64,000 nucleotides of DNA from an uncultured Chloroflexia bacterium (GCA_963841545.1 CAWJDE010000004.1:65474-129473), one strand, 5' to 3'; positions 25,379 through 37,539 are shown, counted from the stretch's first letter. Notes: generated by a model not told the origin, from the sequence alone. Numbers and translations: made by a program.

Positions 25379-26212
25379 ATGGCGCACGGCACCGTCATCG
25401 TCATCGGCGGCGCCGAGGACAAGGTCCGCGACCGGGTCATCCTCGGCCGGTTCGTGACGCTTGCCGGCGGCGATGCCGCCCGGATCGCCGTGATCAGCTC
25501 CGCGTCCTCGCTGGGGCCGGAGGCGGGGGCTCGATACGAGGCCGTGTTCACGGATCTTGGCGCCGCTCACGTCCGGTCGCTCCACGCGGTGGCCCGCACC
25601 CAGGCCAACGACGAGCACGCGGCCCAGGCGATCCGGGACGCCAGCGGCATCTTCCTGACCGGCGGCAACCAGCTCCGGCTGTCGTCGACCATCGGCGGCA
25701 CCCGGCTCGCCACGGCGATCGCCGCCCGGTTCGAGGCGGGTGCCGTGGTCGCCGGGACGTCGGCCGGGGCGAGCGCCGTCTCGTCGCACATGATCGCGTT
25801 CGGCGCGTCCGGGGCGACCCCCAAGCACCGCATGGCCCAGATCGCGGCCGGTCTCGGGCTGCTCCCGGGTGTGATCGTCGACCAGCACTTTCAGCAGCGG
25901 AACCGGCTGGGGCGGCTGCTGTCGGTGATCGCCCAGAACCCGAGCCTGCTGGGCCTGGGTGTCGACGAGGACACGGCGGGCGTGGTCGGGCCGGACCAGA
26001 TCATGGAGGTCATCGGGCGCGGGTCGATCACCGTGGTCGACGGGGCCGCGTCGGAGACCGACGCGTGGGAGATCCGCGGGCACCGGCCGCTGATGATCAG
26101 CGGCGTCGTCCTGCATTCGCTGCCGGCCGGCTATCGGTTCGACCTCCAGCGCCGGGTGCGCGTCCCGACGCCGCAGCTCCATGCGATCCAGGGCGAGGCG
26201 GCCTCGAGCTGA
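25379..26212 (+). CDS. cphB: Cyanophycinase (peptidase S51)
   Basis: The translation includes 'VIVIGGAEDK…ARIAVISSAS…GIFLTGGNQLRL…AGTSAGASAVSSHMI…IVDQHFQQRNRLGRLL', with the Ser nucleophile in the 'GTSAG' context typical of CphB. Confidence 0.8.
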   Translation: MAHGTVIVIGGAEDKVRDRVILGRFVTLAGGDAARIAVISSASSLGPEAGARYEAVFTDLGAAHVRSLHAVARTQANDEHAAQAIRDASGIFLTGGNQLRLSSTIGGTRLATAIAARFEAGAVVAGTSAGASAVSSHMIAFGASGATPKHRMAQIAAGLGLLPGVIVDQHFQQRNRLGRLLSVIAQNPSLLGLGVDEDTAGVVGPDQIMEVIGRGSITVVDGAASETDAWEIRGHRPLMISGVVLHSLPAGYRFDLQRRVRVPTPQLHAIQGEAASS

Positions 26213-26305
26213 CGCCGGCCGGCATCGGTGCCCCGACGGCTGCCACCGGCACGGGCGACCTCATCCCGGCGCCGTTGCCGAGGGTCCGGCGCTTCGGGCA
26301 GCTGC

Positions 26306-26836
26306 CTAGCGCTTCAGGCAGGCGTTGATCCGCTGCAGCCGACCACCGAGGCTGAGCCTGAGCTCGAGCGAGCCGTACCGCAGGCCACGGAACATGTAGA
26401 CCAGGGTCGGAGTCTGGAAGGCGCTGCTGAGCCGTTGCGGCTGCCCAAGCGTTGCGACGATCTCGTTCACGCCGTCGCCCCAGTGCAGCCCCTGGGGCAG
26501 CTCGCCCCGAAACGTATCGATCGAGCCGTTGCCCGGGCCATACAGCGACACCACCTGCACCAGGCCGTCGGGCAGCGTCACGGCTGTCCATTCCGGGCAG
26601 ACGACCGTGCGACCCTCGCCGATCGCGAGCGGCGCGCTCGGGCAGCCGGTGTCTCCCAGCCTGGTGCCCAGGAGCGCGACCGGGTCGCCCGCGGGCGTCG
26701 CCCCGAGCAGCACGCCGTTGGCCGTGTCCTGACCGAGCGAGGGGATGAGGCCGAACGACAGGACGACTGCGACGATGACCGCCAACGCAGCCACGCGTCC
26801 CAGCCGACCAATCCTGTCCGGATGCAACCTGTTCAT
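26306..26836 (-). CDS. Hypothetical exported or membrane-anchored protein
   Basis: The N-terminus 'MNRLHPDRIGRLGRVAALAVIVAVVLSFGL' suggests a membrane anchor. The function is unknown. Confidence 0.4.
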   Translation of the reverse strand: MNRLHPDRIGRLGRVAALAVIVAVVLSFGLIPSLGQDTANGVLLGATPAGDPVALLGTRLGDTGCPSAPLAIGEGRTVVCPEWTAVTLPDGLVQVVSLYGPGNGSIDTFRGELPQGLHWGDGVNEIVATLGQPQRLSSAFQTPTLVYMFRGLRYGSLELRLSLGGRLQRINACLKR

Positions 26837-27081
26837 CGGCGCCCCGCCTGGCAACCTCCACTTCGAGTCATTGCCGATGCTGCACCGCGGTGCACGCACG
26901 GCCAAGTGCTGGCCGGTGGCCATTCCCGGTCATTGCGGCCTCCGGCAACCATCCCGCAACGCATCGGCCTTGCCGTCCACGGCTGGCCCCGCCCGTCCGC
27001 CGCGGCGTACCGCGGCGTACCGCGGCGCACCGTGGGCCATTCCGGCTCGTACACTGCACGTTCCGCACCAGGAGGACGAAC

Positions 27082-30036
27082 GTGGCGCAGGAGGACCCCG
27101 CTCCAAGGACCCGGAACCGGAGGCGGAAGGTCGGCGGGGCCGCGGCATCCACGAGCCTGCGCGGCGCATCCGGCCCGCCGAAGGCCGCCGCAGCGAGCAC
27201 GGCAGCCACCCGGCGGCGCTCGTCGGACGCCCGCACCAGCCGCCGCCCGGAGCCCACCCTGCGGATCGTCGAGACCCGGGTCCTGCGCGGTCCCAACTAC
27301 TGGGCCCGGGAGCCGGTCATCCGCCAGGTGGTCGATCTGGGCGTGCTCGAGGAGTTCCCGTCCAACACGATCCCGGGCTTCGTCGACGCCCTGGTCGAGC
27401 TGCTGCCGACGCTCGAGGACCACGCCTGCTCGCTCGGTCGCCGCGGCGGCTTCGTCACGCGGCTGCGGGACGGGACGTGGGCCGGGCACGTGACCGAGCA
27501 CATCGCGCTCGAGTTCCAGAACCTGGCCGGCACCGACGTCCGCCACGGCAAGACGCGCGGCACCGGTGAGTACGGCCGGTACAACGTCATCTTCGAGTAC
27601 CGCGAGGAGCAGGTCGGGATCGCCGCCGGGCGGATGGCGGTGGGGCTCGTCAACCACCTGGTCGCGCCTAACGACCCCGCCTTCGCGTTCGACCTCGTCG
27701 AGGAGCTCGAGGGGCTGATCCGGCTTGCCGAGCGGCTCGCGTTCGGGCCGTCGACCCAGGCGCTGCTCGACGAGGCCGCCGGGCGCGACATCCCGTACAT
27801 CCGCCTCGACCGCTACAGCCTGGTGCAGCTCGGCCAGGGCGTCCACCAGCAGCGGATCCGGGCGACCATGACCAGCCGCACCGGGGGCATCGCGGTCGAC
27901 ATCGCGTCCGACAAGAAGCTGACCAACCGGCTGCTCGATTCGGCCGGGCTCCCCGTGCCGCGCTCGGAGGTCGTGGAGACCGAGGACGAGGCGGTGGCGG
28001 CGGCGAAGCGGCTCGGCTTCCCGTGCGTGATCAAGCCGCTCGACGGCAACCACGGCCGTGGCGTGGCGCTCGACCTGCGCGACGAAGCCGCGGTCCGAGG
28101 CGCCTGGCCCGACACGGTCCGCCAGAGCCGTGGCGGGGACGTGGTCGTCGAGACGTACATCACCGGGCGCGACTACCGCTGCCTCGTGATCGGCGGCAAG
28201 CTCGCGGCCGTCGCCGAGCGCGTGCCGGCCAGCGTCACCGGCGATGGCGAGCACACGGTCCGCGAGCTGGTCGACGCGACCAACGCCGACCCGCGGCGGG
28301 GCATCGGCCACGAGAAGGTGCTGACCAGGATCCGGCTGGACGAGACCGCCGACGCCGTCCTCGCGGCCCAGGGCTGCACGCTCGACAGCGTGCCCGAGGC
28401 CGGCGCCTTCGTGAAGCTCGCCCTCACCGGCAACATGAGCACCGGCGGCACCTCGATCGACCGCACCACCGAGGCGCACCCCGACAACGTGGAGATCGCC
28501 GAGACGGCGGCCCGGGTCGTCGGCCTCGACATCGCGGGCATCGACTTCATCTGCCCCGACATCGAGGAGCCCGTCCGCGAGACGGGCGGCGGGATCGTCG
28601 AGGTCAACGCGGCACCGGGGTTCCGGATGCACACCCATCCCACCGAGGGCGAGCCGCAGTACGTGGCGAAGCCCGTGATCGACCTGCTGTTCCCGCCGGG
28701 CTCGCCCGCCCGGATCCCGATCGTCGCGATCACCGGCACCAACGGCAAGACGACGACCGTGCGGATGGTCGCCCACATCCTCAAGCTGATGGGCCGGCGG
28801 GTGGGCATGACCTCGACCGACGGCATCGTCATCGACGGTCGCCTGATGAAGCGTGGCGACATGAGCGGCCCGCGCTCGGCGCAGATGGTCCTCCAGAACC
28901 CGACCGTGGACACGGCGGTGTTCGAGGTCGCCCGCGGCGGGATCCTGCGCGAGGGCCTGGGCTACGACCGCAACGACGTCGCCGTGGTCACCAACGTCAC
29001 CGGCGATCACCTGGGTCTCGGCGGCATCGAGACCGTCGGGCAGCTGGCCAACGTCAAGGGCGTGCTCGTCGAGGCGGTCCCGAGGTCGGGGACGGCGGTC
29101 CTCAACGCCGACGATCCGCACGTCTACCGGATGGGCCGCCACTGCGCGGGGCAGGTCGTGCTGTTCTCGATGTCGAAGGTCAAGGGCGAAGAGGGCTTCG
29201 ACCGCATCGACGGCCACACGGCGCGGGGCAACGCCGCGTTCTGCCTCGAGGACACGCCCGAGGGCGAGCTGATGGTGCTCAAGCACGGGCCGCGAAAGAT
29301 GCCGGTGCTGTACACGCACCTGATGCCCGGCACGTTCGGTGGGCGCGCCCGGATGAACGTCGCCAACTCGCTCGCCGCCGCGGCCGCGGCCTGGGCGGCC
29401 GGCGCCCACCTCCACGACATCCGCCAGGGCCTGCGAACGTTCACCACCTCGTTCTTCCAGGCGCCCGGCCGGCTCAACCTGATCGAGGTCGGCGGGGCGC
29501 GGGTGGTCATCGACTACTGCCACAACGTCGACGGGATGCGCCAGCTCGCCGACTTCGTGAACCGGATGATGGCGGAACCGGGGGCGAAGCCCGGCACCCG
29601 CGGGGCCGGCGGGCGTGCCGCGAGCCCGCCTGCCCGGACCGGTCGCGCGATCGGGGTCATCGGCATCCCGGGCGACCGGCGCGACGAGGACCAGCACGAG
29701 TACGGGGCGCTGGCCGCGACGGCGTTCGACGAGATCATCATCCGCGAGGACAAGAACCTCCGCGGCCGTGAGCCCGGGGTGTCTGCCGGGAACGTGGCCC
29801 TGGGGGCCCGGGCGGTCCGGGCCGATGGCGGGGCGCGGACCACCCGCATCGACAAGGTGCTCGATGAGCCGGCAGCGGTCAGGGCAGCGCTCCGCCGGGC
29901 GGCACCCGGCGATCTCGTGGTCGTGTGCGCCGACGATGCGGTCGGCGTCTACCGCGCGGCGATGGCGCTGGCGGGACGCGCCGCCGGGGCGACCGCGTTC
30001 GCCGACCCGGGCGAGCTCGAGGCCCCGCTGGGCTGA
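27082..30036 (+). CDS. cphA: Cyanophycin synthetase with N-terminal, ATP-grasp and Mur-ligase M and C domains. The GTG start follows an AGGAGG element; an Arg/Ala-rich N-terminal extension is possible
   Basis: The N-terminal domain reads 'LRIVETRVLRGPNYW'. The ATP-grasp domain reads 'DKKLTNRLLDSAGLPVPR…GFPCVIKPLDGNHGRGV'. The Mur-ligase domain reads 'IVAITGTNGKTTTVRM…TNVTGDHLG'. Confidence 0.85.
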   Translation: MAQEDPAPRTRNRRRKVGGAAASTSLRGASGPPKAAAASTAATRRRSSDARTSRRPEPTLRIVETRVLRGPNYWAREPVIRQVVDLGVLEEFPSNTIPGFVDALVELLPTLEDHACSLGRRGGFVTRLRDGTWAGHVTEHIALEFQNLAGTDVRHGKTRGTGEYGRYNVIFEYREEQVGIAAGRMAVGLVNHLVAPNDPAFAFDLVEELEGLIRLAERLAFGPSTQALLDEAAGRDIPYIRLDRYSLVQLGQGVHQQRIRATMTSRTGGIAVDIASDKKLTNRLLDSAGLPVPRSEVVETEDEAVAAAKRLGFPCVIKPLDGNHGRGVALDLRDEAAVRGAWPDTVRQSRGGDVVVETYITGRDYRCLVIGGKLAAVAERVPASVTGDGEHTVRELVDATNADPRRGIGHEKVLTRIRLDETADAVLAAQGCTLDSVPEAGAFVKLALTGNMSTGGTSIDRTTEAHPDNVEIAETAARVVGLDIAGIDFICPDIEEPVRETGGGIVEVNAAPGFRMHTHPTEGEPQYVAKPVIDLLFPPGSPARIPIVAITGTNGKTTTVRMVAHILKLMGRRVGMTSTDGIVIDGRLMKRGDMSGPRSAQMVLQNPTVDTAVFEVARGGILREGLGYDRNDVAVVTNVTGDHLGLGGIETVGQLANVKGVLVEAVPRSGTAVLNADDPHVYRMGRHCAGQVVLFSMSKVKGEEGFDRIDGHTARGNAAFCLEDTPEGELMVLKHGPRKMPVLYTHLMPGTFGGRARMNVANSLAAAAAAWAAGAHLHDIRQGLRTFTTSFFQAPGRLNLIEVGGARVVIDYCHNVDGMRQLADFVNRMMAEPGAKPGTRGAGGRAASPPARTGRAIGVIGIPGDRRDEDQHEYGALAATAFDEIIIREDKNLRGREPGVSAGNVALGARAVRADGGARTTRIDKVLDEPAAVRAALRRAAPGDLVVVCADDAVGVYRAAMALAGRAAGATAFADPGELEAPLG

Positions 30037-30055
30037 CCGGCGTGGCCGGCGGGGG

Positions 30056-30387
30056 TCAGAACCCTCCGCCGCCGAGGAGGTTGACCCCGACCATGGCGCC
30101 GTTGTCGGCGATCGTGCCCACGTCCGCGTCGGGCGGCAGGTCGTCCGTCACGCCGCGCGCCCTCGCCTCGCACTCGGCGCACCGGAAGGCACGCGACCCG
30201 TCGGGCCCGACCGTCGCCACGCGATCCGATAGAGCACGCTGCCGACCACCGTCGCCTCGCCGCAGCCCGGGCATGCCTCGCTGGCATCGGCCGCGGCGGA
30301 TGGTGGGACCGCGTCGCTCCGACGACGAACGGAGCCGAGCAGCCGGGCAACGACGCCTCGGGCCCCTGGATGGCGCGACTCGGACAT
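30056..30387 (-). pseudogene. Small Cys4 zinc-ribbon-like ORF split across two frames (CPGC in one frame, CAEC in the other). It may be a frameshifted gene, an indel, or not a gene
   Basis: The ORFs 30148..30387 and 30056..30430 on the minus strand are offset by one frame. A codon-third-position GC swap is visible around 30200–30215. Confidence 0.25.
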
Positions 30388-30469
30388 GGCGTTTCCGCAC
30401 CTCCGTGACGGTGCAGCAACGTTGGCTCACGGCCCACCGACCGTCAAAGGTCGGGCGACCCGATCCGCG

Positions 30470-32227
30470 TCAGGCGCGGCGGCGATCCGCGAGCCGTGGC
30501 GAGAGCTCGCGCAGGCCGTCCGCAAGGTCGACCGGACGTGCGCCGAGGCGCTCGAGGAGCGCGAACACCGCGTCACGCTCGGCGTGACAGAACAGCACCA
30601 CGACCCGCGGCGCGTCGCTGCGCCCGTCGGCCGTGGCGGCCGACCCGTCTGCGCCCAGCTCGCGCTCGAGCGCCTGGATCTCGGTCTCGTAGACGGGCAC
30701 CGTCGCCGGATCCATGCCGCCCGCCCGGATCCCGGCCAGCAGCTGCTCGACGATGCTCGTGCGATCCCGGCCACGGAGGTACACGAGCGTCTCCTTGATC
30801 GCGACCCGCTGCGCCTTCTCCGCCGCGATCCGCCCGATCCCACGGAGCGAGTCGTCGGGCCGATCGCCCGCGGTGCCGATGATCGCGGTCACGGGCGCCG
30901 CCCGGCCCGCCGCCCCGCCGGCGATGGCACCTGCCACGTCGAGGATCGCCTCCGTCCCGGCCTCGTTGTGGGCGAAGTCGACGATCACGGTCCGCCGGCC
31001 CACCCGGAACAGGTTGAGGCGGCCGGGCGACAGCTCGGTCGATGGCCGGAAGCGGCGCAGGCCCTCGGCAACCTCGGCCCGGGTGGCCCCCAGCGCCCGC
31101 GCGCCGGCCGCCGCGGCGAGCGCGTTCGCGACGTTGTGGCGGGCGAGCCCGCCGAGCGCGATGGGCAGCTCGGCCTCGGCCACGAGGTCGTGCTCGACGG
31201 GTCCCTCGCACTCCACGAGGCGATCGCCCGCCACCAGGTAGGCGCGCCCGCCCGCGGCGCGGTGGCGGGCGACCGGCGGGGATCCCGGGCGGAGCGAGAA
31301 CAGCGCGACCCGCGCCCGTACGCGGCGCCCGACCGCGGCAACCAGCGGGTCGTCGGCGTTGAGCACCACCCAGCCATCGGCCCGGGTCACACGGCAGACC
31401 GTGGCCTTGACCTCGGCCAGCTCGGCGAGGGTGTGGATGCCGTGGAGGTCGAGGTGGTCGGCCGAGACGTTCGTGAACACGCTGGCGTCGTTCGACTCGT
31501 AGCCCAGCCCGCGCTGGATGAGCCCGCCGCGTGCCGTCTCGAGCACCGCGGCGTCGAGGTCGACCCGGCGCAGGATCGCGGCGGCACCGCCCGGCCCGGT
31601 CCAGTCGCCGGCGTCCACCAGCCGCTCGTCGACGAGGATCCCGTCCGAGGTCGTCGAGCCCACCCGGCGCCCGGCCCGCACCAGGATGTGCGTGATCAGG
31701 CGGGTCACGGTCGACTTGCCGTTGGTCCCGGTGATCGAGATCGTCGGGATCCGGCGGACGTCGTCGCGGATCCACGTCGGCGGCGTCGCCAGCGCCTCGC
31801 CGATCCGCGCCTCCCACCGGCCGACCAGCTGTGCCTGGGTGTTGGTCAGGCGGACCCGTCGCCCGGCCGAGACCGACCGGGTCGCGAGGTCGTAGGCGGC
31901 CTCGGCGATCGTGCGGGACCGCTCCGCGCCCTGCCACGGCCAGCTGACGATCCAGGCCCCCGCATCCGACCCGCGATGGACCTCGACGGGGCCGGCGCGC
32001 TCGCCGTGGTCGGCACGCAACCGGCGCGTCCACGCGACGAGGTCGGCGACCGCATCCGGCCAGCCGCGGGCGGGGACGGTGCGGCCGAGGTGGACGAGCG
32101 TGCGTGCGGGGGCGTCTCGCGCGCCGCGCCAGGCGCGCGTCCGCCCGACCGTGACCTCGACCTTGACCACCGGCTCGAGCCGGTAGACGTTCGGTCCCTC
32201 CAGCAGGCGGATCTCGCTGAGACGCAC
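30470..32227 (-). CDS. Cyanophycin-synthetase-like Mur ligase family protein. It has a CphA-type N-terminal domain fused directly to the Mur-ligase M and C domains, with no ATP-grasp domain
   Basis: The N-terminus 'VRLSEIRLLEGPNVYRLEPVVKVEV' parallels CphA 'RIVETRVLRGPNYWAREPVIRQV'. The Mur-ligase domain reads 'ISITGTNGKSTVTRL…TNVSADHLD'. No ATP-grasp segment is present. The start is taken at the GTG ending at 32227. Confidence 0.65.
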   Translation of the reverse strand: MRLSEIRLLEGPNVYRLEPVVKVEVTVGRTRAWRGARDAPARTLVHLGRTVPARGWPDAVADLVAWTRRLRADHGERAGPVEVHRGSDAGAWIVSWPWQGAERSRTIAEAAYDLATRSVSAGRRVRLTNTQAQLVGRWEARIGEALATPPTWIRDDVRRIPTISITGTNGKSTVTRLITHILVRAGRRVGSTTSDGILVDERLVDAGDWTGPGGAAAILRRVDLDAAVLETARGGLIQRGLGYESNDASVFTNVSADHLDLHGIHTLAELAEVKATVCRVTRADGWVVLNADDPLVAAVGRRVRARVALFSLRPGSPPVARHRAAGGRAYLVAGDRLVECEGPVEHDLVAEAELPIALGGLARHNVANALAAAAGARALGATRAEVAEGLRRFRPSTELSPGRLNLFRVGRRTVIVDFAHNEAGTEAILDVAGAIAGGAAGRAAPVTAIIGTAGDRPDDSLRGIGRIAAEKAQRVAIKETLVYLRGRDRTSIVEQLLAGIRAGGMDPATVPVYETEIQALERELGADGSAATADGRSDAPRVVVLFCHAERDAVFALLERLGARPVDLADGLRELSPRLADRRRA

Positions 32228-32374
32228 GATCAGGGGAGCATACGTGAGCGTGCGGCCCGCGGCCCCTCCGGTTGCACGGCAGCGTGACGAGCGCCCGGGA
32301 GGCGTCCTGGTCCGCGCCGGGCGCCGCCGGTCCGGGACGCCGACCGCGAACCCGGCCGCCCATACAATCGACGC

Positions 32375-33763
32375 ATGGCCGCCGAACCCCGCCCCCGTTT
32401 CACCGCCGCGGAGCTCGCGGCGCTGAGCGAGCGGATCGAGCGCGACCTTCCCGCCTATCTCGCCGACCTCGAGGACCTCGTCAACGTCGATTGCGGCAGC
32501 TACACGAAGGCCGGCGTCGACACGATCGGGCGCTGGGTCGCCCACCGTCTCGCAGCCCTGGGTGCGAGCGTCACGGCCCACCCCAACGACCTCGGGCTGG
32601 GCGACACGATCGTGGGCGAGCTCGTCGGCGCGGACCCCACCGGGCCGACGCTGCTGTGCATCGCCCACCTCGACACCGTGTTCGATCCCGGCACGGTCGC
32701 CGAGCGGCCGTTCGCGATCCGGGAGGGCATCGCCACCGGGCCCGGCGTCACCGACATGAAGAGCGGCCTGCTCACCGGCCTGTACGCCATCGTCGCCGTC
32801 AGCGAGGCGCTGGGGGCGCTGCCGCTGGCCAGGCTCGTATTCGTCGCCAACCCCGACGAGGAGATCGGCTCACCGGCGTCCACGCCGCACATCGAGCGGC
32901 TGGCCCGGGAGGCCGATGCCTGCCTGGTCCTCGAGTGCGCCCGCGCCAACGGCGACATCGTGTCCTCGCGCAAGGGCAACGTGGGCCTCGCCATCACCGT
33001 CCACGGCCGGGCGGCGCACGCGGGCATCGAGCCCGAGAAGGGCCGCAGCGCGATCCTCGAGGCGGCCCGGATCGTCACCGGGCTCCACGCGCTCAACGGC
33101 ACGCGGCCGGGCGTGACCGTCAACGCCGGCGTGATCGCCGGCGGCACGCGGCCCAACGTCGTCGCCGAGCGGTGCACCATCGAGGTCGACGTGCGCGCGG
33201 TCGCCCGCGACGCGCTGGTCGAGGTCGAGGCGGCCATCCGGGAGCTCGCGCGACCCCGGACCGCGCCCGACATCACCGTCGACGTCGTCGAGGGCGGTCG
33301 CCACTGGCCGATGGAGAAGCTCGAGCGCTCCGCCCACCTCGTCGGGCTGGCCGTCGAGCTCGCCGCCGGCCAGGGCTTCGAGCTCCACGACGCCGCGACC
33401 GGCGGCGCCTCGGACGCCAACACCACGGCCGGCCTGGGCGTGCCGACCGTCGACGGCCTGGGCCCGATCGGCGGCCTCGACCACGCCCCCGGGGAGTACC
33501 TCGAGGTTGCCTCGATCGTGCCCCGCACGATCCTCCTCGCCTCGCTCATCGCGGCGATCGGGCGCGACCCGGAGATCCGGGCGTGGCGGGCGGAGCGCCT
33601 CGCGCGCGCGGCGGCTCAGCCACCCGCGACACCCGCGACACCCGCGACACCCGCGACACCCGCGACACCCGCGACACCCGCGACACCCGCACCCGCGACA
33701 CCCGCGACACCCGCGACACCCGCGACACCGGTCAGGCCCCCGACGTCCGCGCCCGGCGCATGA
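32375..33763 (+). CDS. M20 family metallopeptidase (ArgE/DapE/CPG2-like) with a C-terminal ATP-repeat tail
   Basis: Motifs are 'LLCIAHLDTVF', 'GVTDMKSG', 'NPDEEIGSP' and a dimerisation domain. Confidence 0.8.
   Translation: MAAEPRPRFTAAELAALSERIERDLPAYLADLEDLVNVDCGSYTKAGVDTIGRWVAHRLAALGASVTAHPNDLGLGDTIVGELVGADPTGPTLLCIAHLDTVFDPGTVAERPFAIREGIATGPGVTDMKSGLLTGLYAIVAVSEALGALPLARLVFVANPDEEIGSPASTPHIERLAREADACLVLECARANGDIVSSRKGNVGLAITVHGRAAHAGIEPEKGRSAILEAARIVTGLHALNGTRPGVTVNAGVIAGGTRPNVVAERCTIEVDVRAVARDALVEVEAAIRELARPRTAPDITVDVVEGGRHWPMEKLERSAHLVGLAVELAAGQGFELHDAATGGASDANTTAGLGVPTVDGLGPIGGLDHAPGEYLEVASIVPRTILLASLIAAIGRDPEIRAWRAERLARAAAQPPATPATPATPATPATPATPATPAPATPATPATPATPVRPPTSAPGA
33625..33727 (+). 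repeat. In-frame 9-bp tandem repeat (gcgacaccc, encoding Ala-Thr-Pro), about 10 copies, at the 3' end of the M20 gene
   Basis: Six perfect copies are followed by a 6-bp remnant and four more copies. Confidence 0.8.
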
Positions 33764-34146
33764 CCCGCCGCCAGGTCGCCAGCGGCGGCCCCTGGGAGGC
33801 GTCGGCGGGCTATTCGCGGGCCCTCGCGGCGGGCGACGCATGCTTCGTCAGTGGCACCACGGATGCCGGTCCCGACGGCGAATCGCTCCACCCGGGCGAT
33901 GCCGCGGGCCAGGCGCGGGCGGCGTTCGCGATCATCGAGGGCGCGCTGGCCGAGGCGGGCTTCACGCTCGATGAGGTCGTCCGGACGCGGATGTACGTCG
34001 TGGACCCGGCCGACGCCGATCCGGTCGCCGCCGTGCATGGCGAGATCTTCCGCCACGTCCGGCCGGCCGCGACCCTGGTCGTCGTGGCCGGCCTGATGCG
34101 GCCGAGCCTGCTGGTCGAGGTCGAGGCCGAGGCGCGACACGCGTGA
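33760..34146 (+). CDS. ridA: RidA/YjgF family protein
   Basis: The ATG overlaps the M20 stop (ATGA). The C-terminal motif 'PAATLVVVAGLMRPSLLVEVEAEA' is present. Confidence 0.75.
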   Translation: MTRRQVASGGPWEASAGYSRALAAGDACFVSGTTDAGPDGESLHPGDAAGQARAAFAIIEGALAEAGFTLDEVVRTRMYVVDPADADPVAAVHGEIFRHVRPAATLVVVAGLMRPSLLVEVEAEARHA

Positions 34147-34218: not shown

Positions 34219-34551
34219 CTACGCGACCCCCACGGTCCGGGCGACCGCGACCAGGCCCACCCCGCCGACCAGCCCCAGGAACAGGCTGCGTCGCCACGCC
34301 GTGAGCCCCAGGCACACGAGGACGCCGACGCCCTCGATCCCGAACCGGAGCACCTGCGATCCGTCGGGCGCCTCGAACACGAGCGTGTTGGTCGCCGCGA
34401 GCGAAGCCAGGATGGCAGGCCCGACCAGGCGCAGGTAGAGCAGCGCCCGCGCGGGCAGCCGCTCGATCCCGGGCACCAGCAGCGGAACGGCCCGTGACGG
34501 GTAGGTCGCGACCAGCATCAGCAGCGCGAGCGGGACGAGCTCGGTGCTCAC
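34219..34551 (-). CDS. azlD: AzlD-like branched-chain amino acid transport protein
   Basis: This 110-aa hydrophobic protein lies downstream of AzlC on the same strand. Confidence 0.55.
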   Translation of the reverse strand: MSTELVPLALLMLVATYPSRAVPLLVPGIERLPARALLYLRLVGPAILASLAATNTLVFEAPDGSQVLRFGIEGVGVLVCLGLTAWRRSLFLGLVGGVGLVAVARTVGVA

Positions 34552-34629
34552 CGCACGTGGTCTCCCGGCGACCGGCCGAGGCCGGCGCTCATCGTCCGTG
34601 CCTCCTGGCGACCGGCCGAGGTCGGCGCT

Positions 34630-35439
34630 TCATCGAACGTGGTCCGTCGGCTGGCTGCCGAACGATCGGGCGTCGGCCACCGCCTGCTCGATGTCGATCG
34701 CGTGCGCGCTGGCGTCCGATTCGGCCTGCAGCCGGGTGCCGCCCTCCGGGACCGCCATGCCGACCAGCGGTCCGACCAGGCCGCCGACGATGATCCCGAT
34801 CGATGGTCCGATCAGGACCGACGCGCCAACTCCGATCGCTGCCCCCGCCCCGGCAGCCGCGAGCTCACGGCGGCCGGTGACGAGCCCGGTGGCCAGCCCG
34901 GCCATCGCTGCGGGAAACACGACGTCGAGCCCGAACACCGTCGGGTCCGGGATCGCGCCGCCCAGCAGCACGCCGGCCATGGTGGCCAGGTTCCAGGGGA
35001 TGAACACCCCGACCACGGCGCCGATCCAGTACCCGGTCGCGTCCACCCGCCCGAGCCGGTGGAAATGGGCGGCGGAGAGCGCAAAGGCCTCGTCGGTCAG
35101 CACGTGCGCCATCAGCGCACGCTCGAGGAGCGGCAGCGTGCGCAGCCGCGGCGCGAGCGACGCGCTGTACAGCAGGTGCCGCGCGTTGAGGGCAAAGGTG
35201 AGGATCACGATCGGCAGCCAGGGCAGGCCGGCCGCCACGTACCCCACGGCGGCGAACTGGGCGGCACCGGCGAACGCGAACACGCTCATCGCGCTGGCCT
35301 CGATCGGGGAGTAGCCGGCGCCGCGGGCCGCAAGACCGAACACCAGCCCGAACCCGATCACCGAGACCGCGATGCCCACGGTGTCGAGCAGGAGCCGGCG
35401 ACGGGCGGTCCGAAGGTCGGGGATCGAGGGCGTGGTCAT
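34630..35439 (-). CDS. azlC: AzlC family branched-chain amino acid permease
   Basis: The translation includes 'SAMSVFAFAGAAQFAAVG…' and the protein is multi-TM. Confidence 0.7.
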   Translation of the reverse strand: MTTPSIPDLRTARRRLLLDTVGIAVSVIGFGLVFGLAARGAGYSPIEASAMSVFAFAGAAQFAAVGYVAAGLPWLPIVILTFALNARHLLYSASLAPRLRTLPLLERALMAHVLTDEAFALSAAHFHRLGRVDATGYWIGAVVGVFIPWNLATMAGVLLGGAIPDPTVFGLDVVFPAAMAGLATGLVTGRRELAAAGAGAAIGVGASVLIGPSIGIIVGGLVGPLVGMAVPEGGTRLQAESDASAHAIDIEQAVADARSFGSQPTDHVR

Positions 35440-35487
35440 GGGCGGCGTGGGAACGGCGGCGTGGCGGTCACGCCGAGACGCCGCGAC

Positions 35488-35778
35488 CTAGCGAAGGAAG
35501 GTCTTCGCGCAGGTCCCGTCGCAGACGACGAACAGGGCGTGCTTCTCGGCCGCGTACCCGGCCGCGTGCAGCAGGCCCCGGCAGCCGGCCGTCGGGCATT
35601 TCCAGACCCACCATCGCTCGTGCTCGTCGAGCGGTGTCGTCTCCGCCTGGAGCGTGTCGGACAGCCCCTCCCGCGCGGCGACCAGCGCCGCGACCCGCCC
35701 GGATCGCTCGCTCTCGGTCTCGCTCGTATACGGGTAGTTCTGGCCGACGTTCGAGGTCAACTCGCGCCTCCATGTCAC
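35488..35778 (-). CDS. Small Cys-containing hypothetical protein with a GTG start
   Basis: The C-terminus reads 'WKCPTAGCRGLLHAAGYAAEKHALFVVCDGTCAKTFLR'. Composition is protein-like, unlike the overlapping Arg-rich frame. Confidence 0.3.
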   Translation of the reverse strand: MTWRRELTSNVGQNYPYTSETESERSGRVAALVAAREGLSDTLQAETTPLDEHERWWVWKCPTAGCRGLLHAAGYAAEKHALFVVCDGTCAKTFLR

Positions 35779-35901
35779 ACGAGGCCGGCGGCAGATCGGT
35801 GTGAGCGCAGCCTGCCACCGGCCGGCCGAGGATACCATCGGGCGCCCGACGACCGCCCCGGGGCCATCGACCCGCCGAACGGCCCGTCGGCCGCCGCCGC
35901 C

Positions 35902-37536
35902 TCAGCGGACGGCCGGCTCCCCGGACGAGCGCGGATCGGTCGTCGCGGCCAGCGACCCCCCGGCGGCAGGCCCCCCGTCCACGAGCTCGATCGCATGCTG
36001 ATGGCCCAGCGAGCCGTCGAAGGGCACCCGTCGGAGGTGGTGTCCGCGGGCGGCCAGGCCGGCCTCGACGCCGGGTGCGAGGTCGCCGTCCGCGACCACG
36101 TCCACGGGCGGCGCCAGCCAGCCGGCGGGCTCGACCAGCACCCGAGGCGCCGCAATGGCGGTCCCGATGTCGACGCCGCCGTCGACGAGCGCGGACACCA
36201 GTCCTGCATGGACCTGCGGCTGGACGTCGCCGCCCATCGACCCGGCCACGATCCACGGCCGTCGCTCACCGTCCCGAAACAGCATGCCGGGGAGCAGCGT
36301 GTGCACCGTCCGCTTGCCCGGCTCGAGCACGTTCGGATGCGCGGGATCGAGCGAGAACGATGCCCCGCGGTTCTGGAAGTGGACGCCGGTCGCCGCGTCG
36401 AGCACGCCCGACCCGAACCCTGCCGCGTTGGACTGGATCAGGCTGACCGCGTTGCCCGCGGCGTCGACGACCGCGAGGTACACGGTGCCGCCGACCAGGG
36501 TGCGAACGGGCGCCGGCGAGGGATCCGCACGGCCGGCGTCGATGCGTGCGGCGAGCGATGTGGCATGGGCGGCCGACAGCAGGCGCTCGACCGGGATGTC
36601 CCGGACGGCGGGGTCCGCAAGGTGGGCGTCGCGGTCCGCGAACACGAGCTTTGCGGCCTCGAGCTGGAGGTGGGGCCAGGCGGCGTCGGACCAGCCGCGG
36701 TCGCCGAACGCGGCGCCCGGCGGCGGCGCGTACCGCGTGAGCACGTTGAGGATCTCGAGCGCCAGGATGCCGCTGCTGTTGGGTGGGTGGGTGGTCACGC
36801 GGATCCCGCGATACGTGGTGGCGATCGGCGTACCCCACGAGCTGCGGTGGTCCCGCAGGTCGCCGACCCCGAACGGTGCCCCGGCAGCCGCCAGCGCGTG
36901 CGCGATCCGCTCGCCCAGCGGACCGTCGTAGAAGGCGTCGAAGCCCTCGTCGGCGAGCGCGCCCAGGGTGGTCGCGAGCGCCGGCAGCCGGACCCTGTCG
37001 CCCGGTCCGACGCGCCGGCCCGCCGGCTGCCAGACCGAGCGCAGCCCCTCGGCCCAGGGCTCGGCCGCCGTCTCGCCGATGATCCCCCCGGCCGCCCGGG
37101 CGAGGTCGCCCGAGGCCGGAAACCCCGACGTCGCGAGCTCGATCGCCGGTGCCAGCACCGCTGCCCGCGGCAGGCGTCCCCATCGGCGATGCGCGTCGGC
37201 CCAGGAGCGGACCGCACCGGGCGTCGTGATCGCCAGCGGTCCGCGCCGCGGGATCCGGTCGAGCCCGAGGCCCCGAAGGTGCGCAGCCGATGCCGCGGCC
37301 GGGGCGCCACCCGACCCGTTGAGCGCGACCTGCTCGCCGGCCGGCTCGTCCCAGACCAGCCAGAAGGCATCGCCACCGATCCCGCAGCCGTGCGGCATCA
37401 CGACCCCCAGGACGGCGTTGGTCGCGATGGCAGCGTCCACCGCGTGGCCGCCGGCCGCGAGCACGGCCAGCCCGGCGGTGGTCGCGAGGTGATGCGGCGC
37501 GACGACGGCGCCGCGGGCACCCCGGGCGACGGTCAT
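35902..37536 (-). CDS. ggt: Gamma-glutamyltranspeptidase
   Basis: The autoprocessing threonine sits in 'GGTVYLAVVD'. Other GGT segments include 'GSMGGDVQPQ' and 'TTHPPNSSGIL'. Confidence 0.85.
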   Translation of the reverse strand: MTVARGARGAVVAPHHLATTAGLAVLAAGGHAVDAAIATNAVLGVVMPHGCGIGGDAFWLVWDEPAGEQVALNGSGGAPAAASAAHLRGLGLDRIPRRGPLAITTPGAVRSWADAHRRWGRLPRAAVLAPAIELATSGFPASGDLARAAGGIIGETAAEPWAEGLRSVWQPAGRRVGPGDRVRLPALATTLGALADEGFDAFYDGPLGERIAHALAAAGAPFGVGDLRDHRSSWGTPIATTYRGIRVTTHPPNSSGILALEILNVLTRYAPPPGAAFGDRGWSDAAWPHLQLEAAKLVFADRDAHLADPAVRDIPVERLLSAAHATSLAARIDAGRADPSPAPVRTLVGGTVYLAVVDAAGNAVSLIQSNAAGFGSGVLDAATGVHFQNRGASFSLDPAHPNVLEPGKRTVHTLLPGMLFRDGERRPWIVAGSMGGDVQPQVHAGLVSALVDGGVDIGTAIAAPRVLVEPAGWLAPPVDVVADGDLAPGVEAGLAARGHHLRRVPFDGSLGHQHAIELVDGGPAAGGSLAATTDPRSSGEPAVR

Positions 37537-37539
37537 GGG

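Follow-up and report, generated by a model that had tools for sequence, protein, structure and literature searches.

A cyanophycin gene cluster encodes a predicted CphA-family protein with an N domain and a Mur-ligase domain but no ATP-grasp domain

Cyanophycin synthetase CphA1 is built from an N domain, an ATP-grasp domain (G), and a Mur-ligase domain (M). In ∼80% of CphA1 enzymes, the N domain carries a Cx19HxxEH motif, the peptidase site that generates primers (PMC9262961). The M domain acts on the C-terminal Asp of the polymer, which reportedly must be undecorated (PMC9427784). CphA2 consists of N and G domains followed by a truncated, inactive M domain that has neither P-loop nor lid (PMC10273328; PMC9427784). 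On the degradative side, the known cyanophycin dipeptide hydrolases are IadA, an amidohydrolase; IaaA, an enzyme of the Ntn asparaginase type; and CphZ, an AotO-like M14 enzyme (PMC9974463).

We analyzed a gene cluster in a 64,000-nucleotide stretch of Chloroflexota DNA (the window). The original prediction had placed in it cphB, a full-length cphA, a convergent CphA paralogue at 30470-32227, and a divergent M20 gene with a RidA gene. All five genes were found where it had put them, within 25379-34146, and GC3 frame analysis indicates that each is coding:

25379-26212, + strand: cphB, cyanophycinase (peptidase S51), 277 aa (TIGR02069, Pfam Peptidase_S51)
27082-30036, + strand: cphA1 (N + G + M), 984 aa (TIGR02068, Pfam, GTG start with AGGAGG)
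30470-32227, - strand: N-M paralogue, 585 aa (Pfam Mur_ligase_M and Mur_ligase_C)
31754-32227, - strand: paralogue N domain, CphA-type, diverged, residues 1-158 (hhalign, AF2)
31043-31753, - strand: paralogue M-domain core (Mur ligase middle domain), residues 159-395 (Pfam Mur_ligase_M, residue mapping)
30470-31042, - strand: paralogue M-domain lid (Mur ligase C-terminal domain), residues 396-585 and stop (Pfam Mur_ligase_C)
32228-32374, no strand: divergent intergenic region of 147 bp between the paralogue and the M20-RidA pair (coordinates)
32375-33763, + strand: M20 family metallopeptidase, 462 aa (Pfam Peptidase_M20 and M20_dimer)
33760-34146, + strand: RidA/YjgF family protein, 128 aa (Pfam Ribonuc_L-PSP, 79 bits)

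The stop codons of cphA1 and the convergent paralogue lie 434 bp apart. The divergent spacer at 32228-32374 is presumed to hold promoters for both directions; a simple scan of its 147 bp found no sigma-70 consensus.

The CphB of the window scores 256.8 bits against TIGR02069 (cut-off 126.6), and its CphA1 scores 1121 bits against TIGR02068 (cut-off 850), with Pfam matches to Cyanophycin_syn, ATP-grasp families, Mur_ligase_M, and Mur_ligase_C. The gene is full length, as had been claimed, but the start implied earlier, near 26890, does not hold up as well. GTG 27082 appears likelier than the alternative upstream GTG 26890, because AGGAGG lies just 5′ of it, GC3 climbs there, and gene calling on a near-identical public contig (L092) likewise gives 984 aa. 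Some 60 basic residues lie ahead of the N domain. The Cx19HxxEH motif can be read in the translation as C...HVTEH.

The N-terminal region of the paralogue was examined by sequence profile and by predicted structure. The Pfam model of the CphA N domain (PF18921) was not detected in the paralogue, even at E ≤ 10; profile-profile comparison with 85 CphA1 N domains (hhalign) aligned 153 columns with a probability of 98.3% and an E-value of 1.1e-14. An AF2 model of the whole protein reached a pLDDT of 91.4 and a pTM of 0.92, with the N region mostly above pLDDT 85. The top nine Foldseek matches of this model were all CphA1, and against 7lg5_A the query-normalized TM-score was 0.74, the alignment covering the entire target chain. 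Profile and model thus confirm the proposed retention of a CphA N domain, diverged but homologous to that of CphA1. Its GPN loop (G11, P12, N13) is kept, and L9, G11, and N13 are almost invariant across 55 diverse members of the N-M family defined below; in SuCphA1, this loop touches the M domain (PMC9262961). Residues 1-158 contain no Cys and no HxxEH, the aligned segment reading WPDAVADLVAWTRRLR, and as judged from this alignment, the Cx19HxxEH primer-peptidase site is lost from the N domain.

The paralogue had also been predicted to lack an ATP-grasp domain, and a check for a cryptic one turned up none. Pfam gave no ATP-grasp match in the paralogue. In the AF2 model, only ∼30 residues, occupied by a lone helix (129-144), separate the N fold from the P-loop, and the domain therefore has no room. 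Sequence and model together confirm an architecture of N + M without G, which reverses, as had been proposed, that of CphA2 with its N, G, and truncated M domains (PMC10273328; PMC9427784).

The Mur-ligase part of the paralogue is recognized directly by Pfam, as anticipated, with both Mur_ligase_M (78.1 bits; gathering score 24) and Mur_ligase_C (28.7 bits; 28.4) above threshold, and it shares 42% identity with its counterpart in the window’s own CphA1. TIGR02068 matches the paralogue with 371.5 bits, below its cut-off of 850 and over model positions 475-835 only. The MurE model TIGR01085 gives 110.7 bits (cut-off 257.3), and the MurF, MurD, MurC, and FolC models score lower. A profile search of the PDB returned CphA1 (7lg5) at 314 bits and its next match at 70 bits. 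These scores and the CphA-like N-terminal domain set the paralogue apart from MurE and the other folate or peptidoglycan Mur ligases, and the M domain groups with CphA as the prediction required.

The paralogue is neither an isolated oddity nor a genomic island, the term of the original prediction; its sequence relationships place it in a large, old, and widespread family. We define this N-M family, in the present analysis, as proteins of ∼530-600 aa in which a GPN-loop domain at the N terminus precedes a CphA-type M domain; this M domain has its P-loop at residue 130-215 and falls inside the N-M group of an M-domain tree. In this tree, 77 of the 82 N-M sequences, the window paralogue among them, form one bipartition with no CphA1 within it (bootstrap 90/100). 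The paralogue aligns over its full length with many N-M representatives at 35-45% identity, and more than 120 full-length relatives of ∼585 aa are at least 69% identical to it. Dozens of 50%-identity clusters come from several phyla, and the hosts of the family span at least five phyla, among them Chloroflexota, Actinomycetota, Gammaproteobacteria, Planctomycetota, and Myxococcota. No paper describing it was found in the literature searched, and NCBIfam has no model dedicated to it.

We mapped the active-site residues of CphA1 onto the paralogue. Its P-loop is GTNGKST (residues 167-173), followed by E230 and the pair D257-H258, the last corresponding to SuCphA1 D585/H586. TeCphA1 N497/K499/T500/T522/E558 map to N169/K171/S172/S194/E230, and F692/R731/H748/A755 map to H364/R403/H420/A427. 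Of 92 family members, 89 retain the seven core residues (N, K, E, D, H, R, H), and mean M-domain divergence in the family is ∼60%. On this mapping, the residues on which ATP binding and acyl-phosphate chemistry depend in the M domain of CphA1 are retained by the paralogue.

The lid is altered at positions that we take to form the amino-acid pocket, an assignment based on MurE DAP-binding residues and sequence alignment and not on a CphA1-Arg complex. The paralogue has P457, S460, A472, T480, and Y483. At 457/460/472/480, CphA1 enzymes have R, D, F, and D, conserved at 83-89%; the N-M family is variable at these sites and conserves R239, N400, and Y483 instead. The CphA1 residue D480 (paralogue numbering) aligns with the Asp of the DNPR motif in E. 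coli MurE. Because positions that are conserved in CphA1 and line the pocket in MurE drift in the N-M family, its amine nucleophile, or its recognition of the acceptor, is probably unlike that of CphA1. The polymer contacts S603 and E607 in the SuCphA1 M domain are A275 and R279 in the paralogue.

Gene neighborhoods tie the family to cyanophycin. In 23 of 24 informative N-M loci, spread over five phyla, cphA1 lies within ∼8 kb, and cphB is usually present as well. The N-M gene often sits directly 3′ of cphA1 within one operon; in subfamily B, it begins 9-19 nt past cphA1 on the same strand. Since the adjacency to cphA1 and cphB is conserved across phyla, the cyanophycin link is strengthened, and the remaining neighbors vary (fatty-acid-type reductases, MFS transporters, ParB). 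The M-domain residues of the CphA1 partners are intact, so the N-M protein is not standing in for a defective domain. In actinobacterial members, a TPR protein-interaction domain lies at the C terminus. No cphA1 was present in the stretch fetched for locus L012, and separate G-less forms on one Bacteroidota MAG contig and one metagenome contig (L009, L010) stand alone, away from cphA1.

In the window and in loci L001, L002, L011, and L014, the N-M gene is divergent from a putative dipeptidase gene. In the window this is the M20 gene. It overlaps the RidA gene by 4 nt at their stop and start codons (ATGA), in line with the coupling foreseen in the original prediction; L001 has the same overlap. 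The M20 protein matches only Peptidase_M20 and M20_dimer in Pfam and ends in a C-terminal (Pro-Ala-Thr)n tail, and its best NCBIfam match, the glutamate carboxypeptidase model NF004788, reaches 261 bits, below the cut-off of 349. An M20 gene adjoins the N-M gene in Chloroflexota clusters only; other N-M clusters have an iadA-like amidohydrolase gene instead, upstream of cphB in subfamily B. Its gene position makes the M20 protein a plausible stand-in for isoaspartyl dipeptidase, a candidate β-Asp-Arg dipeptidase. The M20-RidA pair would then supply the last catabolic step, hydrolysis of β-Asp-Arg, in place of the iadA-like gene.

For the N-M enzyme itself, the original prediction had suggested that it might add Arg or another amine, or prime or cap the polymer. 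We tentatively favor, at slightly less than an even chance, a ligase that works in trans and uses ATP to decorate the side chains of cyanophycin. The polymer would be held by the N domain and the M-domain lid, while the M-domain core would phosphorylate a free Asp β-carboxylate with ATP; attack on the acyl phosphate by Arg or some other amine would then form an isopeptide bond. Acting in trans, the enzyme would complete or diversify the side-chain decoration left undone by the cis-acting M domain of CphA1. Several points weigh against this reading. The undecorated C-terminal Asp that the CphA1 M domain reportedly requires (PMC9427784) is already served by CphA1 in cis, so the purpose of a second enzyme is not obvious. 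Gene adjacency indicates a shared pathway and no specific reaction, and the lid changes could equally fit another acceptor or a backbone-bond reaction.

The window gene converges with cphA1 and has its promoter region in common with the M20 gene, which is putatively catabolic. This arrangement would also fit a salvage role, in which the bonds made by the enzyme belong to the backbone or to a primer. Dipeptide addition is known among Mur ligases, as in MurF, and the products of CphB, β-Asp-Arg dipeptides or short fragments, might likewise be rejoined into oligomers; alternatively, β-Asp-Arg might be made from Asp and Arg. Such an enzyme would be functionally analogous to CphA2, with M in place of G as its catalytic module, and the N-M architecture does mirror that of CphA2 (PMC10273328). 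The recurrent divergence from a putative dipeptidase gene, without cotranscription with cphA1, and the changed lid residues, as expected for an incoming nucleophile other than free Arg, point the same way. However, the subfamily B gene sits in a biosynthetic operon right after cphA1, the window CphA1 bears its own primer-generating site (PMC9262961), so that priming is already covered, and a CphA-type M domain is not known to activate an α-carboxylate; we regard salvage or priming as improbable. The unusual nucleophile pocket, the lost cyanophycin-cleaving site, the replaced polymer contacts, and the forms found away from cphA1 (L012 and the L009/L010 type) would suit a ligase for a non-cyanophycin substrate, such as a different poly-acid, a small peptide, or a component of the cell envelope, placed near cphA1 by shared nitrogen or amino-acid regulation. 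This, too, seems a rather slim prospect, given that proximity to cphA1 holds in nearly all informative loci of five phyla while other neighbors are not conserved and that the nearest relatives of both domains are those of CphA1.

Two further readings would make catalysis by the paralogue dispensable or defunct. The role of the N-M protein might be mainly structural or regulatory, in a hetero-oligomer with CphA1 that tunes polymer length, granule formation, or activity. The tight, often same-operon linkage to cphA1 and the TPR domain of actinobacterial members would agree with this, as would the inter-subunit contacts that the M-domain core and N domain make in CphA1 tetramers (PMC9427784). Yet the P-loop Lys, Mg ligands, D-H pair, and lid Arg and His persist in 89 of 92 members, a retention across ∼60% divergence that is hard to explain for a family without catalysis, and we rate a mainly supporting role as very unlikely. 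A shorter copy beside a full-length gene could also suggest a decaying remnant of a duplicated cphA1. The conservation data contradict this, leaving it next to no likelihood: the frame is intact with GC3 of 0.87-1.0 throughout, the catalytic residues are conserved, full-length relatives abound, dozens of 50%-identity clusters occur in several phyla, and the separate tree group of the N-M family means that the paralogue is no recent duplicate.

A broader picture can be drawn, which we consider doubtful. N-M proteins might constitute a third class of cyanophycin-family enzymes after CphA1 and CphA2, stand-alone Mur-type ligases making with CphA1 a polymer that CphA1 alone cannot, and the RidA-coupled M20 peptidase of Chloroflexota clusters might represent a fourth, unrelated type of cyanophycin dipeptide hydrolase. 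If so, the ligases might attach side chains of another sort (Lys, Orn, citrulline, Glu, or another amine) or decorate internal Asp residues; alternatively, β-Asp-Arg units might be religated through Mur-ligase chemistry.

Compared with CphA1 (7LG5, 7LGJ, 7LGQ, 7WAC), the paralogue shares the N domain, the core and lid of the M domain, the packing of N against M, and the gene cluster, and the P-loop, the D-H pair, and the lid Arg and His are common to both. It differs in lacking the entire backbone-extending G domain, which adds Asp, as well as the Cx19HxxEH site and the conserved lid residues R457, D460, F472, and D480, and N-M M domains group apart in the tree. Like CphA2, it is a reduced CphA-family member, with an N domain and a single catalytic module, in a genome that also has CphA1. 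The two are opposites in content, the paralogue having no G domain and a full, apparently active M domain, and in distribution, CphA2 being cyanobacterial and the N-M family occurring in Chloroflexota, Actinomycetota, Proteobacteria, Planctomycetota, and Myxococcota. Tandem cphA/cphA′ pairs, described in Betaproteobacteria in the older literature and present in eight of our loci (L053, L065, L075, L078, L081, L083, L086, L090), also place a second CphA-family gene beside canonical cphA1, but their extra copy has N and G with a weak or partial M match and is not G-less. With MurE and other peptidoglycan Mur ligases (1E8C, 8G6P), the paralogue shares the predicted chemistry, ATP-dependent acyl phosphate formation, together with the GDR Arg and the Arg aligned with that of the DNPR motif; in place of the UDP-MurNAc-binding N-terminal domain, it has a CphA-like one, and its context is cyanophycin genes, not the dcw cell-wall cluster. 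The M20 protein, finally, resembles IadA, IaaA, and CphZ in its placement in a cphA1/cphB cluster but belongs to none of their three families, being a metallohydrolase of the M20 family, whose members cleave N-acyl amino acids and dipeptides.

The window has a G+C content of ∼74%, which crowds ORF lists with spurious frames, and coding frames were chosen by third-position GC (GC3). On the basis of coordinates, domain models, and GC3, every element of the cyanophycin locus that the original prediction had described was recovered:

25379–26212, + strand: cphB, cyanophycinase (equivalog model 257 bits, cut-off 126.6)
27082, likely GTG start: cphA1, cyanophycin synthetase (TIGR02068 1121 bits, cut-off 850)
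30470–32227, − strand: the CphA paralogue, 585 aa, convergent with cphA1 (GC3 0.87–1.0 throughout)
32375–33763, + strand: M20 gene, divergent from the paralogue across a 147-bp spacer
33760–34146, + strand: RidA gene, its start overlapping the M20 stop as ATGA

The nearest relatives of the locus genes belong to Candidatus Limnocylindrales/Limnocylindria (phylum Chloroflexota), and the same locus is present on a near-identical 650-kb metagenome contig (L092). As predicted, cphA1 is a full-length gene, with Cyanophycin_syn, ATP-grasp, Mur_ligase_M, and Mur_ligase_C domains, but the GTG at 27082, which has AGGAGG ahead of it, is a likelier start than the one implied near 26890. From this codon CphA1 is 984 aa long, and the same call is made on the near-identical contig. 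The GTG start of the paralogue at 32227 is backed by a Met start at the same position in its relatives; the stop codons of the paralogue and cphA1 lie 434 bp apart. No Rfam family was found at the locus, and a promoter scan returned no sigma-70-like promoters there. One terminator-like hairpin was set aside because it falls within the paralogue coding region.

In the gap separating cphB from cphA1, the other strand carries a 176-aa ORF (26306–26836, −) with a strong coding GC3 signal (0.85–0.95) and a hydrophobic N-terminal segment. It had no match in Pfam or NCBIfam, and no gene is called at the corresponding place in L001 or L002, two of the comparison loci that we fetched. CphA1 itself begins with a basic, low-complexity extension of ∼60 residues (27082–27261), rich in Arg, Ala, Ser, Thr, and Pro and placed before the N-terminal (N) domain; its relatives in L001 and L002 (969 aa) are apparently extended too.

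The paralogue lacks the ATP-grasp (G) domain, as had been proposed, and does not hide a cryptic one: ATP-grasp models gave no match even at E ≤ 10, and in the predicted structure only residues 129–158, a single helix, lie between the N fold and the P-loop of the Mur-ligase (M) domain. Its own N domain is real but diverged from that of CphA1, and it was detectable only by profile–profile alignment and structure prediction. Pfam gave no match on the N-terminal 158 residues even at E ≤ 10, a PDB sequence profile search did not reach the CphA1 N domain, and BLASTP matched no more of it than the first 28 residues. A profile of 50 window-like N regions, in turn, aligned with one of 85 CphA1 N domains at a probability of 98.3% (E = 1.1e-14, 153 columns). 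An AlphaFold2 run with close relatives only, which left the N region at a pLDDT of 30–50, was superseded by a run on a diverse alignment (pLDDT 91.4, pTM 0.92). The best Foldseek matches of the resulting model were all CphA1 structures. The match to 7lg5_A (query-normalised TM-score 0.74) spanned the whole target, so that N and M superpose and the G domain appears as a gap. The most conserved N-domain element in the family is the GPN loop, with L9, G11, and N13 nearly invariant; its counterpart in the reference enzyme SuCphA1, a hydrophobic loop that includes Y14 and I17, packs on the M domain (PMC9262961). The translated N domain of the window’s CphA1 contains the Cx19HxxEH motif, which has been tied to primer generation (PMC9262961). 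The paralogue has no Cys, His, or Glu in the segment aligned with this motif, and the primer-peptidase site is therefore absent from it.

The M domain of the paralogue is of the CphA type and looks active. Over 355 residues it shares 42% identity with the M domain of the window’s CphA1. It does not cluster with ordinary Mur ligases, an outcome that the original prediction had considered: the paralogue scored 371 bits on the CphA model (positions 475–835) and 111 bits on MurE models. A family profile searched against the PDB likewise reached CphA1 structures at 252–314 bits and the next sequence at 70 bits. Functional M-domain residues of TeCphA1 (PMC9427784), together with the D585A/H586A pair that inactivates SuCphA1 (PMC9262961), were mapped onto the paralogue via ungapped alignment blocks.

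Functional CphA1 residues and their counterparts in the paralogue
N497, K499, T500: N169, K171, S172
T522: S194
E558: E230
D585, H586: D257, H258
F692: H364
R731: R403
H748: H420
A755: A427

Of 92 family members, 89 retain the residues N, K, E, D, H, R, and H that occupy the seven core positions. The ATP-binding and catalytic set is conserved in both CphA1 and the G-less (N-M) proteins, and the residues conserved in CphA1 only cluster in the lid, the C-terminal part of the M domain. These comprise the R after GDR (87%), D460 (89%), F472 (87%), and the D of “KED” (85%); conserved in N-M proteins only are R239 (91%), N400 (84%), and a Tyr inserted before RGR (82%). In an alignment with Escherichia coli MurE, the “KED” Asp falls on the Asp of the DNPR motif, and the arginines of GDR and RGR, which all of these sequences share, fall on MurE arginines that we take to be diaminopimelate binders. 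The altered lid residues, read with the MurE alignment, suggest that N-M enzymes and CphA1 differ in the construction of the pocket that receives the amine.

The paralogue is no isolated oddity but belongs to a large family. More than 120 close relatives of ∼585 aa are at least 69% identical to it, and representatives clustered at 50% include many proteins of 530–600 aa that align over their full length at 35–45% identity. Many more representatives match from the P-loop on and have their own ∼170-aa N region starting “...R.L.GPN”. We distinguished a window-like subfamily A (“LVE[IV]R.L.GPN”) and a subfamily B that begins “DSRRLTGPNL”, whose N region aligns to CphA1 N domains with a probability of 96.6% and still includes ∼40 residues that look like the beginning of a G domain. 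A third group of few forms, including those of L009 and L010, matches the canonical Pfam Cyanophycin_syn (P0256, 145 bits; P0266, 125 bits). Independent G-less forms with this canonical N domain are those of L009 (a Bacteroidota MAG contig) and L010 (an unassigned metagenome contig) and the proteins P0206, P0270, P0256, P0266, P0219, and P0262; neither cphA1 nor cphB is near the genes in L009 and L010. Some actinobacterial N-M proteins (L023 and L024, Terrabacter; L021; P0161) carry a ∼185-aa C-terminal extension matching TPR_5, a protein-interaction module, at 80 bits, which hints at partner binding. One protein from the representative search, P0135 (972 aa), has neither N nor G domain and consists of two tandem CphA-type Mur-ligase modules with P-loops at residues 19 and 588.

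A neighbour-joining tree built from 158 M domains (P0219, P0262, and P0266 left out) places 77 of the 82 G-less sequences, from subfamilies A and B, in a single bipartition without any CphA1 (bootstrap 90/100). The other five (P0206, P0239, P0241, P0256, and P0270), which include subfamily C members and canonical-N-domain forms, branch among CphA1 and appear to have arisen independently and more recently. When E. coli MurE and MurF serve as outgroup, 65 of 100 replicates recover monophyletic CphA1 M domains, and the outgroup joins the N-M side.

We then collected the loci of family members, both from metagenomes and from genomes (one for each species), and classified them by tblastn. G-less genes occur in Chloroflexota, Actinomycetota (including cultured Kribbella and Terrabacter, plus a Nocardioides MAG), Gammaproteobacteria (Lysobacterales), Planctomycetota, and Myxococcota (Plesiocystis pacifica SIR-1 and Nannocystis). 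Of the 24 loci with enough flanking sequence, 23 have an intact cphA1 no more than ∼8 kb away, mostly accompanied by cphB. In subfamily B the genes follow one another on one strand in the order iadA-like, cphB, cphA1, and N-M, the N-M start lying 9–19 nt downstream of cphA1. Other neighbours are not conserved; in the actinobacterial and Thermomicrobiales loci they are unrelated housekeeping genes (SDR reductases, a carboxylesterase, MFS transporters, and ParB), and we do not count them as belonging to the system. The cluster is disrupted in the close relatives, with an IS110-family transposase between M20 and the N-M gene in L001 (6614–7663) and a beta-lactamase-family gene between the N-M gene and cphA1 in L002 (9828–10889).

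The M20 protein is closest to glutamate-carboxypeptidase-type models, scoring below their cut-offs. Chloroflexota clusters (the window, L001, L002, L011, and L014) are the only ones in which its gene adjoins N-M; in subfamily B an iadA-like amidohydrolase is encoded upstream of cphB instead. Cluster position and chemistry make M20 a plausible candidate for a β-Asp-Arg hydrolase. Known hydrolases of the cyanophycin dipeptide are IadA, IaaA, and the M14 enzyme CphZ, and in 27% of genomes with cphA1 neither iadA nor iaaA is present (PMC9974463), a gap that M20 might partly explain. The coupling of M20 to RidA is conserved, L001 having the identical ATGA overlap. At its C-terminus the window’s M20 (462 aa) has a (Pro-Ala-Thr)n tail encoded by a 9-bp tandem repeat (33621–33729; 12.4 copies, 94% matches), and the orthologues are shorter (427 aa in L001, 416 aa in L002). 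In L092, 13 extra bases within this repeat shift the frame, so that the gene caller fuses M20 and RidA into a 594-aa product; the extra bases may reflect either genuine variation of the repeat or a mistake in long-read assembly. Beside the M20–RidA pair are genes for AzlD and AzlC, a branched-chain amino-acid exporter (region 34219–37539, −), with an ORF beyond them (35902–37539). L001 and L002 have gamma-glutamyltranspeptidase and MFS transporter genes on the far side of AzlCD, and the block may belong to a wider region that handles amino acids.

The paralogue thus has a defined architecture, homology to CphA, intact catalytic machinery, and linkage to cphA1, and its function we only infer. 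The N-M enzyme would hold cyanophycin through its N domain and lid, use ATP to activate a free Asp β-carboxylate, and couple an amine to the activated Asp, acting in trans beside CphA1. Conservation excludes a pseudogene. The idea that the paralogue makes up for a faulty M domain in CphA1 is likewise ruled out: all partner CphA1 proteins keep every key M-domain residue, which makes the paralogue a second M-type active site rather than a replacement for a dead one. Coupling of an amine to the polymer side chain is our favoured reading, and it has three rivals. The enzyme may be a salvage or priming ligase that makes backbone bonds. It may be mainly a structural partner of CphA1. Or it may be a ligase for a substrate unrelated to cyanophycin.

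A G-less CphA relative was not described in the literature that we searched full-text, including bioinformatic surveys of cyanophycin genes; the published name “CphA3” denotes an Aeromonas beta-lactamase. NCBIfam release 20 has no dedicated model for the family. Public labels for N-M proteins are “cyanophycin synthetase” (JGI) and “Mur ligase family protein” (NCBI). As far as could be found, the architecture is visible in databases, yet uncharacterised. Its function is readily testable, with cultured carriers (Terrabacter sp. BE26, T. aerolatus NBRC 106305, Kribbella spp., and P. pacifica SIR-1) and with existing CphA1 assays and substrates. If N-M enzymes alter polymer composition or solubility, they would be of direct use in bioproduction.

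The nitrogen-storage polymer cyanophycin is widespread and industrially interesting, and its synthesis is thought to need CphA1 alone, with CphA2 serving recycling in cyanobacteria. That five phyla have a conserved, apparently active second ligase beside cphA1 suggests that a step has gone unrecognised. This step could complete or diversify side chains, serve salvage, or control the properties of the polymer. Two cphA genes also stand in tandem in betaproteobacterial loci (L053, L065, L075, L078, L081, L083, L086, and L090). There, however, the upstream copy has N and G with a weak or partial M match, a reduction unlike that of the G-less N-M proteins.
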